From Octopus sinensis (lineage: Eukaryota), in assembly GCF_006345805.1 (NCBI RefSeq), contig NC_043004.1, forward strand, positions 64,418,001-64,482,000: a stretch of 64,000 nucleotides of DNA. The letters are read 5' to 3'. Shown piece after piece: positions 3,477 to 52,363 of this stretch. The position numbers and the translations under genes are program-made. The notes under the pieces are model-generated. The model saw nothing but the letters and a program-made list of their open reading frames with translations. It did no database searches and was not told the DNA's origin. How positions within the stretch are numbered: position 1 is the first letter of the stretch; each line of letters opens with the position of its first letter.

Positions 3477-3785
3477 GTGGAGGCGCAATGGCCCAGTGGT
3501 TAGGGCAGTGGACTCGTGGTCAGAGGATTGCGATTTTGATTCCCAGACCGGGCGTTGTGTGTGTTTATTGAGTGAAAACAACTAAAGCTCCACAAGGCTC
3601 CGGCAGGGGGTGGTGGCGAGCCCTGTTGTACTTCTTGCCCTGACTTTCTCTTACTCTTTGTTCCTGTTATTTTGAGTAACGCTGCAATGGACTGGCATAC
3701 CGTCCAGCTGGGGGGAACACATACGCAGAAACTGGGAAACCGGGCCCTTGAGCCTGGCTAGGCTTGAAAAGGGCGCATAAATAAT
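3477..3785 (+). mobile_element. SINE family D, variant with V-domain-like 3' body
   Basis: tRNA-like head gtggaggcgcaatggcccagtggttagggcag shared with 15616 and 55482; 3' part gcaatggactggcataccgtccag differs from those copies. Confidence 0.8.
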
Positions 3786-15615: not shown

Positions 15616-15888
15616 GTGGAGGCGCAATGGCCCAGTGGTTGGGGCAGCGGACTCGCGGTCGTAGAATCGTGGTTTCGATTCCCAGACCGAACGTTGTGAG
15701 TGTTTATTGAGCGAAAACACAAAAAGCTCCACAAGGCTCCGGCAGGGGGTGGTGATCCCTGCTGTACTCTTCTGTTGGCCTGCTCACTTAGCCAGCGGGG
15801 TGGCGTCATTCAAAGGCTAAAACAATGCGAACGCATTGTGACCAGCGATGTGTAACTACATCTGACGGACTGGTCGGTCACGTGATCA
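15616..15888 (+). mobile_element. SINE family D
   Basis: tRNA-like head (tggcccagtggtt; ggtttcgattccc); ends ggtcacgtgatca; close to the 55178-55482 copy. Confidence 0.85.
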
Positions 15889-15898
15889 TATATGTATG

Positions 15899-15932
<34 letters not shown>

Positions 15933-15952
15933 TGTATGTATATATATATATG

Positions 15953-15996
<44 letters not shown>

Positions 15997-16247
15997 TGTA
16001 TATATATATATACATATATGTATGTATGTAAATATATATATATGTATGTATATATATACATATATGTATGCATGTAAATATATATATATGTATGTATATA
16101 TATATATGTATGTATGTATATAATATATACATATATATATACATATATGTATGTATATGTATATATATACATATATATATACATATATGTATATATATAT
16201 ATATATATATATACATATATGTATGTATATATAAACATATATGTATG

Positions 16248-16279
<32 letters not shown>

Positions 16280-16640
16280 CATATATGTATGTGTATGTAT
16301 ATATATACATATATGTATGTATATATATATATGTATGTATATATATATATACGTATGTATGTATGTATATATATATTATATGTTATGTATATATATATAT
16401 GTATATATATATGTATGTATATATATATATGTTATGTATATATATGTATGTATATATATATGTATGTATGTATGTATATATATATATATGTATATATATA
16501 TGTATGTATATATATATGTATGTATGTATATATATATATACATATATGTATGTATATATATGTATGAATATATATATATGTATGTATATATATATGTATG
16601 TATATATATATATATGTGTATGTATATATATATATATGTA
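15889..16640. repeat. (TA)/(TATG) microsatellite tract
   Basis: Direct inspection. Confidence 0.95.
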
Positions 16641-16823
16641 GATGAATGAATTATCTTATTAAGGATAATTCGGTTAACCGATACCTGGGTAGCAAATTCA
16701 CGTCAGAAAAACACTGTTGAAGCTACATGCCAAGGGCAGAGATCACGTGCTTTTGTGGAAATTTGTGTGTATTTTTAATAGAAATAAATGAAGGAATGGA
16801 GTTGAATGACGAATTAACAAAAT

Positions 16824-16920
16824 TCCTTTATTCTCGACATATGTTTCGAAGGCTGCATAATCCTAATTTCGAAGGAATAAGGGGTGCATTATGCCGCCTT
16901 CTCATCAGGAAAAACAAGGA
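16824..16920 (-). ncRNA. Type I hammerhead ribozyme, canonical core
   Basis: Minus strand: UCCUUGUUUUUC-CUGAUGA-GAAGGCGGCAUAAU..AUUAUGCAGCCUUC-GAAAC-AUAU-GUC^GAGAAUAAAGGA; 13/14 bp stem II closed by G-C, palindromic stem III ACAUAUGU, bipartite stem I. Confidence 0.85.
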
Positions 16921-17072
16921 ACTTATGTCAGCATCAAGATGAACAAAAACTTTTAGATGACTGCCCACACGGAGCCCATAGTGATAATGAGTGTTTCTTT
17001 AAAATATATATATGTATGTATATATATATGTGTATGTGTGTGTATATATATATATATATATACATATATGCA

Positions 17073-17225
17073 TTGGGCCCCAATTTCGCCAATCTTTTTG
17101 TTGGCTACATTGGGGCCCAAGTATTCTCCCAATTCTCCGGGCCGACCCCTGAACTATACGGTCGCTACATAGACGACTGCAATACCTCTGTTAACTTCCG
17201 TGATATCTCTCTTAGCATCAACCAC
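17073..17225 (+). pseudogene. Penelope-like element reverse transcriptase fragment (internally deleted)
   Basis: LGPNFANLFVGY...PELYGRYIDDC fused to SVNFRDISLSI; matches PLE motifs MGPxxANLF, YxRYIDD and FLD. Confidence 0.8.
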
Positions 17226-17227
17226 CC

Positions 17228-17260
<33 letters not shown>

Positions 17261-17291
17261 TAGGTATATATATATATATTATATATATATA

Positions 17292-17336
<45 letters not shown>

Positions 17337-17921
17337 GTGTGTGTATATACGTATATATATGGGGAAAGTAAGAAGAAAAAAAAATTCAATGAGATAGAGA
17401 GAAGGATTTCCGTCAAAGACAACATCATCAAATAATTAAGTTTGTGAAATAAACAGATCTATTTTTGCTGCCAAACTAGATAAATTCTTTAAATACCGAC
17501 ATCTTCCTATTTGGTGTTTGGTTAGACTTCTTCATTTCTTTGGAAACGGTGAGAGGAAGAATCATGGAAAGAGAGAGAAGAGGGCGGCAGCTTGGGAAAG
17601 AGGAGGAAACAGGCTGATGTAAGGTAAATGGGACAAAGAAAGTAAAAATGGAACCTCTCTCTCTTCTTTCCTCACTTGAAAAATAAATTTTAAAAAATTT
17701 AACACACATATACACACGTTTATGTACTCTTAAAACTGGCATATAAACACTCAAAGAACAACATACGCAATTAAGGAGATCTATAGACACATTCATAGCC
17801 ACATTGGGATGTACATATACACACACATTAATAAGTAACTAGTACACACACACACACATAGATTGACATGTGCAGATACAGATTTTCATATTGACATACA
17901 TACACATGTTTTTAGCCACTG

Positions 17922-27661: not shown

Positions 27662-27953
27662 GTGAGTGAAAAGAACTGAAAAGAATTAGTGATAAAATTT
27701 CAGTACACCTGGCGCTGACTCTGGTTTTCTGGCTCACACAGAGACTGCGTTGTATACCAGAATGTTCTCTACAGTTTATACCTGTGCTTCTGTAATATTT
27801 TTTGACTTTTTGGCACATGAGAAATCCAATTTTTTTTTTAAAAGAAGGAAAATATATATATATATTGGCACACTTCATATGGAATGGTAAAAGAAAAATA
27901 TAAACACTTCAAAGTTAAAGATTGAGAAAGAAAGAAATTATACAAACATAGAC

Positions 27954-29593
27954 ATGGATTCCCGGCAATCCTTCTAAAAGTATGTAAGAGAGTCCTAGCA
28001 AGACCACCGCAGTCTCTCTTTCAGAGCTTCCTTGCAACTGGCAAACTTCCAAGAAAACTGAAGGAAGGTAAAATATGCCCTATTCATAAAGGAGGTAGCA
28101 GAGCAGAGGCCAAGAACTACAGACCTATCTCTCTGACCTCACACATCAGCAAGGTCATGGAACGAATAGTCAGAAGGAAACTGATCACCTTCCTTGAAGA
28201 AAATGACTTGCTGCCTGACACCCAACATGGTTTCCGACCAGGAAGAAGCTGCTTAACTCAGCTCCTACAACACTATGACTGGGTGCTGAAACGACTGCTC
28301 AACCACTCAAATGTGGAAGTGATATATCTCGACTTTGCAAAGGCCTTTGATAAAGTCGATCATGGAATGATATGTCACAAACTGCGTGATCTTAGCATAG
28401 TTGGAAAACTGGGAGAATGGCTTCATGACTTTCTGAAAGATAGAAGTCAGGTGGTAGTAGCCAATGGGACCACTTCCATTAACACGCAAATAGTGAGCGG
28501 TGTTCCGCAGGGCACTGTTTTGGGACCACTACTGTTCATAGTGGCCCTCTCAGACATGCCCTCAGCCACGCAGAGAGCCACAATCACAAGTTATGCAGAT
28601 GATACAAAAGTTTCACAGGCAATACAGAACCCTGAGGACACTAAACGCCTGCAATGTGAGCTGGACAAAATATACAAGTGGGCTGAAAAGAATAGCATGC
28701 AGTTCAATCCTGAAAAGTTTCAAGCTTTATGCTATCAGCATGCAAAACTAAATGCAATACCCAATGAATACACTGGACCCGGAGGAATTGCAATCCCAGA
28801 GGCACAATCAGTGCGTGACCTGGGTATTTACATGAGTGATGACACAACCTTTCGTGTACATGTTGCTAAATTGGCAATGAAATGTAGACGACAGGCCGGA
28901 TGGATTCTTAGAACCTTTAGAACAAGAGAACAAGAAACCATGATGGTCCTCTGGAGGACACTTGTCCTAAGCCACTTTGACTATTGCTCTCAGCTATGGT
29001 CACCATCCAGTGTCAAGCTGATCACAGAACTTGAGGCGATCCAACGTAGCTACACGAAGAAGATAGCCTCTGTGCAGCATATAAGCTACTGGGAAAGACT
29101 CAAGAGATTAAAACTCTATTCCTTGGAGTGTAGGCGAGAAAGATATGCCATAATATACATCTGGAAGATCCTGGAAGGACTTGTCCCAAACTTTGGCATC
29201 GAGAGTTACACAAATGCCAGAACTGAGCGCCACTGCGTGGTGCCAAGGACTCCAAATTTGCCATCAAGATGTAGGACAAGATTCTGTGATAGCCTGGGCT
29301 TCCGAGGCCCACAGCTCTTCAATATCCTCCCGAAGAACCTGAGAGACCTGCATGGGGTGGATGCAGATGTCTTTAAAATGAAACTGGATCTCTTCTTGTC
29401 AGGTATCCCAGATGAACCAACTTCACGGCAGGAGGTGCAGATGAGGGCAGCTGCATCAAACTCTCTCATGCACCAAATGGCAGTTGCTAAAAAGCATTCG
29501 TGAAGTAAAACCATGTAGCAACACCAAATGGTGGTGCCCCAGCATGGCCACAGCTCGTGAGCTGAAACTAGAATCAATCAATTGAATCAATCA
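27954..29593 (+). mobile_element. 5'-truncated CR1-type LINE with 3' UTR and (AATC)n tail
   Basis: RT frame, short 3' UTR with hairpin cagctcgtgagctg, aatc repeats; possible catg target duplication. Confidence 0.92.
27956..29503 (+). CDS. LINE ORF2 reverse transcriptase and C-terminal domain (5'-truncated; frame open upstream of track Met 28157)
   Basis: GFPAILLK..PIHKGG..NYRPISLTS, QHGFRPGRSCLTQL, YLDFAKAFDKV, GVPQGTVLGPLLF, YADDTK, RDLGI, LKLYSLECRRER; no stops or frameshifts. Confidence 0.92.
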   Translation, partial: GFPAILLKVCKRVLARPPQSLFQSFLATGKLPRKLKEGKICPIHKGGSRAEAKNYRPISLTSHISKVMERIVRRKLITFLEENDLLPDTQHGFRPGRSCLTQLLQHYDWVLKRLLNHSNVEVIYLDFAKAFDKVDHGMICHKLRDLSIVGKLGEWLHDFLKDRSQVVVANGTTSINTQIVSGVPQGTVLGPLLFIVALSDMPSATQRATITSYADDTKVSQAIQNPEDTKRLQCELDKIYKWAEKNSMQFNPEKFQALCYQHAKLNAIPNEYTGPGGIAIPEAQSVRDLGIYMSDDTTFRVHVAKLAMKCRRQAGWILRTFRTREQETMMVLWRTLVLSHFDYCSQLWSPSSVKLITELEAIQRSYTKKIASVQHISYWERLKRLKLYSLECRRERYAIIYIWKILEGLVPNFGIESYTNARTERHCVVPRTPNLPSRCRTRFCDSLGFRGPQLFNILPKNLRDLHGVDADVFKMKLDLFLSGIPDEPTSRQEVQMRAAASNSLMHQMAVAKKHS

Positions 29594-52263: not shown

Positions 52264-52363
52264 NNNNNNNNNNNNNNNNNNNNNNNNNNNNNNNNNNNNN
52301 NNNNNNNNNNNNNNNNNNNNNNNNNNNNNNNNNNNNNNNNNNNNNNNNNNNNNNNNNNNNNNN
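52264..52363. other. Assembly gap (100 N)
   Basis: Run of exactly 100 n. Confidence 1.

Follow-up and report, generated by a model that had tools for sequence, protein, structure and literature searches.

A hammerhead-bearing repeat of probable Penelope-like origin next to a reverse transcriptase fragment in a TA-rich microsatellite of Octopus sinensis

The window analysed here, a 64-kb stretch of the Octopus sinensis genome, is rich in microsatellites, varies between 27 and 46% GC and contains a LINE reverse transcriptase (RT) frame as well as SINE-like repeats. One copy of an abundant repeat, referred to as the island, carries a hammerhead ribozyme motif and is placed head-to-head with an RT fragment of a Penelope-like element (PLE). 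Both are embedded in TA-rich sequence (Table 1). The original prediction of a TA-flanked island of ~360 bp was borne out, with its left edge corrected to nearer 16638, the family end observed in read contigs. Self-comparison showed that the island is present as a single copy in the 64-kb window. Its TA array is shared by a SINE-like repeat of ~270 bp at 15618-15890 (+), the head of which has what we take to be a tRNA-derived look; ARAGORN found no tRNA for this repeat. Other SINE-like copies, 85-86% alike, are located at 55481-55183 (-) and 3479-3632 (+). The LINE-type RT is encoded by an open frame of 525 aa at 27926-29503 (+; RVT_1, E 6.4e-32). Its exact sequence is absent from the protein collection searched, and the frame possibly represents a young non-LTR element. 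An assembly gap of 100 N is found at 52264-52363.

Table 1. Coordinates of the island, its hammerhead and the neighboring RT fragment within the window.
Feature	Position	Strand	Details and basis
TA-rich microsatellite array at island 3' end, likely target site	15891..16640	.	750 bp, 88% A+T
Island, one copy of an abundant ~360-bp repeat	16638..17002	-	5' end right, 3' end left; read-contig alignment
Type I hammerhead motif with extended helix I	16815..16930	-	Sequence, fold z -4.32, pair map
GAAA, palindrome and C17	16836..16847	-	GAAA 16847-16844 (G12 = 16847), palindrome ACAUAUGU 16844-16837, C17 = 16836; sequence
Helix II arm	16848..16901	-	14 positions, asymmetric loop, apical stem 16882-16874/16862-16870, UUC cap; pair probabilities, variants
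Core C3-A9, CUGAUGA	16902..16908	-	G5 = 16906, G8 = 16903; sequence, no variant at ≥10%
TA-rich tract from island to RT piece	17003..17073	.	Sequence; 17001-17073 (73 bp) is 85% A+T
Internal PLE RT fragment, putatively Neptune-type, head-to-head with island	17070..17228	+	Translation, phmmer, gap relative to P0003
TA-rich tract enclosing the end of the RT piece	17229..17349	.	121 bp, 92% A+T

All 15 core nucleotides of a hammerhead are present on the minus strand of the island in a type I topology, open at helix I, and the characteristic elements of this type (CUGANGA, GAAA, UH, the G10.1-C11.1 pair and three helices) were all identified. Helix I pairs 16909-16921 with 16835-16823 and consists of 5 bp, a 2x2 internal loop and 6 bp; the MFE fold lengthens it to 16930/16815. 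Helix II pairs 16901-16888 with 16848-16861, with 13 pairs and one G.A mismatch at 16895/16854, and is closed by G10.1-C11.1. Every structural element named in the original prediction, specifically the complete core, a 14-position stem II with one mismatch, a palindromic stem III and the 2x2 loop of stem I, could thus be found in the sequence. The cleavage site that it proposed, between 16836 and 16835, likewise agrees with the position of the GUC at 16838-16836 (-), for which the predicted cut is 16836^16835. Its description of the hammerhead as canonical is accurate for the core. It does not extend to the periphery, where helix II occupies 14 positions and is followed by an apical stem, and Rfam gave no match. 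Canonical metazoan type I hammerheads have been defined by a helix I of 6 bp, a helix II of 4 bp and a tertiary contact between loop 1 and loop 2 (PMC4209133).

The motif is not a chance occurrence, because its fold is more stable than those of shuffles (z -4.32) and shuffled windows rarely if ever match the descriptors. The 116-nt hammerhead piece folds at -34.2 kcal/mol, and 0 of 200 shuffles were as good. A strict descriptor was satisfied by none of 60 dinucleotide-shuffled whole windows and a relaxed one occurred 0.05 times per shuffled window, while the hammerhead was the sole site recovered from the real 64-kb window. The island as a whole also folds better than shuffles (z -3.43), a signal which was attributed to the hammerhead because the flanks alone gave z values of +1.67 and -0.98. 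Rfam returned 0 matches at the gathering threshold across the 64-kb window, and no hammerhead family was among the 46 weak matches in 16600-17300, nearly all of which were microsatellite.

The helix II arm, including its apical hairpin, forms a rod of about 20 bp, based on variants that outline the apical stem. Pair probabilities in helix II are 0.98-1.0, with 0.81 for the last pair, and helices I and II retain 0.84-1.0 even inside the whole island. At this length, helix II cannot place loop 2 at the canonical 4-bp distance. Across contigs of the island family, 29 places vary at ≥10%, and 14 variant rows fall inside the hammerhead. Six of these 14 rows keep or create a pair (16833, 16852, 16869, 16881, 16895 and 16914 U>A), four break one (16860, 16897 G>U, 16898 and 16913) and three lie in loops. 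The 16860 variant shortens helix II and accounts for 98-99% of depth, so most family copies have a helix II of 12 positions; the pair-breaking 16913 variant accounts for 35-55%. By itself 16897 G>A breaks a pair. If phased with 16852 C>U it would be compensatory, and although the variants here are unphased, the frequencies of the two are alike (20/18, 27/15 and 56/39%). None of the 15 core positions shows a variant at ≥10%, an absence expected by chance with a probability of 0.28. The variant pattern is consistent with selection on the fold and is no proof of it. No conserved loop contact is visible, since the helix I internal loop and the helix II loops differ between copies. It should be noted that the helix II loop at 16862-16882 repeats CCUUCGAAA, so that a different helix II of 5 bp, with GAAA after it, could form; the common 16869 variant abolishes this alternative.

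The RT piece consists of 53 stop-free residues. A phmmer search with this piece against a protein library clustered at 50% identity yielded 270 PLE RT homologs at E ≤ 0.001 (best 1.7e-12). Translation and homologs thereby confirm the predicted PLE RT fragment about 150 bp from the hammerhead on the opposite strand. Pfam gave nothing on the 53 residues and a word-indexed search found no match among 5 candidates. The fragment is internal, spans motif B' to YIDD, has lost 32 codons in frame after YIDDC compared with P0003 and ends in (TA)n. Among 48 relatives of 750-1000 aa, 38 contain a Cys linker, a GIY-YIG domain and a terminal PxG[LIM]N. By this domain order and by the RT motifs of 17070-17228, which are presumably those of Neptune, the piece appears to be a Neptune-type PLE RT, a clade name to be read together with the fact that the layout is common to Neptune and Nematis. 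The combination of Cys linker and GIY-YIG is the one described for Neptune/Nematis EN+ PLEs (PMC8557442). None of the 6 closest decayed relatives is named, and a profile built from 7 close relatives matched 29 longer proteins, again none of them named. When 269 PLE proteins were compared with the window by tblastn, the RT piece (17073-17180) was the only region found apart from the LINE, which was hit through one chimeric protein. Window self-comparison, tblastn and HMM searches detected no EN and no second island or pLTR copy after the RT piece. At its start (17073-17121, +) the RT piece has a 12-bp inverted repeat without mismatches that would fold into a strong hairpin (-30.3 kcal/mol for RNA and -17.3 for DNA). 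A Gly in the RT piece, where its relatives have Glu, completes this repeat and the breakpoint lies at the foot of the hairpin, hinting at template-switch correction.

Parts of the island were found in 20 of 24 sequencing runs, 4 of which contain half of its words or more. Contigs were counted at 80% likeness in four of the 24 runs (X1, X3, X12 and X21); the rows of organisms C and D, with shares of 0.34-0.42, and a further 16 lie outside these counts. Matching contigs numbered 2911 in X1 (organism A), 1860 in X3 (organism B) and 112 in X12, a run only presumed to be RNA and used for sequence variants alone. Most of the family contigs are 90-99% alike. None of 12.9 million raw reads in X21 fit the island, though this run has the same species label as X1; this was rated no test. 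Exact DNA patterns gave 0 matches in either of two scans of metagenome contigs and 0 in prokaryote genomes. The 11 exact-pattern matches in viral contigs were rejected as chance, since they were not homologous and their helix I did not exceed 2 bp. Summed contig depth, which is no copy number, peaks at 16665-16700 and 16809-16844 and drops more than 100-fold at 16773-16784 (X1 and X3). The 3' block and the 3' half of the hammerhead are common to several subfamilies, which differ in between. The 3' block at 16665-16700 could be an RT recognition or start site. A small hairpin is located at 16645-16668 near the island 3' end, and an inverted duplication at this place may have given rise to it. 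The sequence there differs in another subfamily, with loose ends at 16663 in 23, 19 and 5 contigs, and a Helitron-like 3' hairpin was rejected because it is not common to that subfamily.

The ends of family copies are informative about how they were inserted. At the 3' (left) end, copies run through a short fixed end into (TA)n in 38 (X1), 27 (X3) and 4 (X12) contigs, which together with the TA flanks at this locus indicates the microsatellite 3'-end insertion of Neptune-like targeting. Four contigs contain opposite-strand joints (16729/16981, 16730/16980, 16821/16987 and 16913/16988), the first two of which probably represent one event, giving about 3 independent events. The joints are head-to-head, given that no more than 20 letters remain to the right of 16980 while their shorter sides comprise 35-51, and each combines a truncated inverted copy with a copy starting at 16980-16988. 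An inverted 5'-truncated copy at the 5' end, as expected of a PLE pseudo-LTR (pLTR), is therefore seen in the island family. Three independent joints within 9 nt have a rough chance of 0.0024 if joints were uniform over 300 nt, which suggests a preferred 5' start near 16980-16988. No head-to-tail joint was present among the 6 joints listed, although contigs show presence and not absence and a further 183 loose ends lie beyond this listing.

Taken together, we consider it probable that the island is a hammerhead repeat likely representing a Neptune-type PLE pLTR or a pLTR-only derivative, that the lone copy is a slow cutter and that the RT piece is separate. PLE parentage of the island is likely in view of its kind of hammerhead, of family copies that end in (TA)n and of the inversion joints. 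The argument was built on these three features because protein likeness to PLEs is not significant. HMM searches of the island gave a best E of 0.19 for a full-length PLE profile and 0.074 or worse for an N-terminal profile. Two resemblances noticed by eye were examined with frameshift-aware tests and rejected: taken as a decayed EN C-terminus, the island 5' 65 nt scored no higher than 11 of 250 background windows and 22 of 200 shuffled sequences, and the ATG at 16840-16838, taken as the start of a decayed PLE N-terminus, no higher than 29 of 300 background windows and 48 of 300 shuffled sequences. Further points against PLE parentage are that none of the copies was found attached to a PLE ORF, in contigs gathered with the 360-bp island alone, and that the inversion evidence amounts to 4 contigs. 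A PLE pLTR would lie at the 3' end of, or flank, a same-sense RT-EN ORF, which is not the case for the island at this locus. We hypothesize that a PLE protein with RT and GIY-YIG domains would reverse-transcribe minus-strand island RNA at a nicked (TA)n site, starting from the 3' end. It would stop in the region of 16980-17000 and occasionally attach a second copy that is truncated and inverted. Hammerheads in pLTRs, inverted 5'-truncated copies beside the pLTR and insertion into microsatellites have all been described for PLEs (PMC8557442), whose pLTR may comprise the end of the ORF, the hammerhead and the start of the ORF (PMC11167929).

The original prediction had likened the arrangement of island and RT fragment to the inverted pLTR of PLE insertions. 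The Penelope connection itself gained support from the (TA)n ends, the inversion joints and the putatively Neptune-type RT, whereas joining the two parts into one insertion did not fare as well. Such a single event, in which an inverted pLTR was inserted head-to-head with a 5'-truncated ORF copy, the 3' part was later deleted and the TA tract grew at the junction, seems to us possible if somewhat unlikely. It would account for the head-to-head orientation, with the inversion joints of the family found at the same end, and for the fact that the window, with its 79 microsatellite tract pieces, contains a single hammerhead and a single PLE RT piece, which nonetheless lie only 73 bp apart. Deletions do occur here, as the RT piece is already without 32 codons. 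There is published precedent for a truncated PLE that carries a hammerhead on the opposite strand at its 5' end (PMC4209133, legend of Fig. S4A, for Cotesia bracovirus; PMC8557442, legend of Fig. 2). However, a 73-bp TA tract separates island and RT piece while the four inversion joints are listed without intervening letters, and everything 3' of the RT piece, including any EN or second pLTR, would have to be lost. In addition, the SINE in the same array indicates that the array collects separate insertions, and PLEs tend to insert into or beside earlier copies (PMC6765202). We infer that a separate PLE insertion into this microsatellite, now decayed, is the likelier origin of the RT piece.

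Helix III has a pairing probability of 0.01-0.02 in the monomer, and its 8-nt palindrome ACAUAUGU favors a duplex (-7.0 kcal/mol) over a hairpin (+2.4). As helix III barely forms in the monomer, cleavage likely needs a dimer or a protein, judging from modeled folds and from published analogues. A cut at the predicted site would occur mainly when two copies exchange their palindromes and form an 8-bp helix III, or with the aid of a PLE protein. A lone island copy would then likely cut slowly and be a dead end. No head-to-tail joint that would supply a partner in cis for dimer cleavage was among the six listed. Monomers of metazoan PLE hammerheads have been described as inactive or weak and their dimers as weak (PMC4209133), axolotl hammerhead monomers were cleaved to 6% and 22% in an hour with far more cleavage for dimers (PMC7229834), and the Anolis PLE hammerhead cuts with protein only (PMC11167929). 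A dimer or protein requirement of such hammerheads is also reported in PMC6765202. Calling the island the best candidate for an active ribozyme was thus an overstatement, considering a helix II without canonical placement of loop 2, the low helix III probability and analogues that need a dimer or protein. An ATG at 16840-16838 (-) lies inside the helix III palindrome, and its frame closes after 8 codons. The Anolis PLE ORF begins inside its hammerhead (PMC11167929).

The need for a partner is weakened by two observations, namely that the active monomer fold lies just 2.2 kcal/mol above the MFE and that monomers with a short helix III do cleave in the case of mussel and coral, at ~0.1 and ~0.8 per minute (PMC7229834). 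An efficient stand-alone monomer is nevertheless unlikely in our view. In such a monomer, the helix II rod and the extended helix I would take over the role of the loop 1-loop 2 interaction, either by pre-organizing the junction or through an unrecognized tertiary contact. The high pairing probabilities of helices I and II within the whole island, the low cost of the active fold and the intact core would all be compatible with this, as would the mussel hammerhead, which cleaves at its measured rate without the usual tertiary nucleotides (PMC7229834). Helix III, however, is almost unpaired and its palindrome prefers the duplex, the loops of helices I and II vary among copies without a visible conserved contact, and only 1 of 9 Xenopus retrozyme dimers was cleaved while 8 of 9 tested were not (bioRxiv 10.64898/2026.07.22.740005). 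A further reading, which we regard as doubtful, would make the family an ORF-less, SINE-like Penelope parasite with a fixed 5' start at ~16980-17000 and thousands of dispersed (TA)n monomers without arrays. In this new hammerhead architecture the ~20-bp rod would replace the loop-loop contact, and single copies would cleave themselves, or pair in trans by way of the helix III palindrome, within host transcripts across the genome.

The island could also be a monomer of a tandem non-LTR retrozyme, whose arrays would be transcribed, cut to ~360-nt units, circularized and reinserted by PLE proteins. We consider this quite improbable. In size and in having a type I hammerhead it does resemble the retrozymes of mussel (350-390 bp) and axolotl (330-350 bp; PMC7229834), retrozymes derive from pLTRs and often occur as solo monomers (bioRxiv 10.64898/2026.07.22.740005), and the island folds well as a whole. 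That fold signal, however, comes from the hammerhead and not from the flanks, no head-to-tail joint was among the 6 listed (with contigs unable to show absence), copies end in (TA)n rather than in the next unit and the island copy does not begin at the cut site. Slightly less probable still is a non-PLE mobile class (SINE, MITE or Helitron-like) carrying a hammerhead, which would fit the TA flanks, the 3' hairpin at ~16645-16668 and the lack of significant protein likeness to PLE ends, but is at odds with a hairpin that differs in another subfamily, with the absence of a tRNA gene and, by self-comparison, of a long terminal inverted repeat, and with head-to-head inversion joints that suit PLEs.

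The preferred reading of the island as a PLE pLTR or its derivative places it among systems that are already well described, specifically PLE terminal-repeat hammerheads and hammerheads of pLTR-derived retrozymes. No description of the island family was encountered in searches of the literature on octopus or cephalopods, and Repbase, Dfam, subscription papers and bioRxiv supplements may contain one; for the giant squid genome, 235 hammerhead-1 loci were counted without description (PMC6962438). The island hammerhead, with its helix II of 12-14 bp, escapes Rfam, so families of this kind are probably undercounted. A clean, abundant family with natural variants is well suited to the question whether PLE hammerheads cut as monomer, as dimer or with protein, and also to the question whether cutting matters for mobility, which it did not in vitro in a study on Anolis (PMC11167929).

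The closest known counterparts are the PLE pLTR hammerheads with small palindromic helix III (Cervera and de la Pena 2014, PMC4209133). The island shares with them the type I topology, the intact core and G10.1-C11.1, a short palindromic helix III combined with a helix II that exceeds the canonical length, flanks rich in U on the 5' side and in AU on the 3' side, and an occurrence mostly as single dispersed copies. It differs in its helix II of 12-14 bp plus apical stem, a helix that is nowhere longer than 8 bp among the 56 motifs shown in Fig. S3 of that paper, and in a long helix I (5+6 bp and more), unlike the PLE hammerheads described there. The unpaired nucleotide between A9 and G10.1, part of the PLE consensus, is absent in the island as it is in 2 of the 56 (Marsupenaeus and Saccoglossus(2); PMC4209133). 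Fungal and protist motifs have been reported with diverse helix sizes (PMC4209133). Non-LTR retrozymes (PMC7229834; bioRxiv 10.64898/2026.07.22.740005), such as the mussel repeat of 350-390 bp, are similarly ~360 bp long, non-coding, low in GC, abundant, equipped with one type I hammerhead and likely pLTR-derived. They are, however, defined by tandem arrangement and circular RNA, whereas island copies end in (TA)n and form inversions. Compared with Neptune-type EN+ PLEs (Craig et al. 2021, PMC8557442), just a 53-codon internal remnant is found here. Canonical metazoan type I hammerheads, as in the satellites of Schistosoma, newt and axolotl, have the same core and likewise a helix III of 1-2 bp with a palindromic loop, but possess a 4-bp helix II with loop 2 placed for a loop 1-loop 2 contact, which the island lacks; the Rfam hammerhead models do not score the island. 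The island is thus a further PLE pseudo-LTR/retrozyme-type hammerhead that is unusual mainly in its helix II and constitutes no new class.
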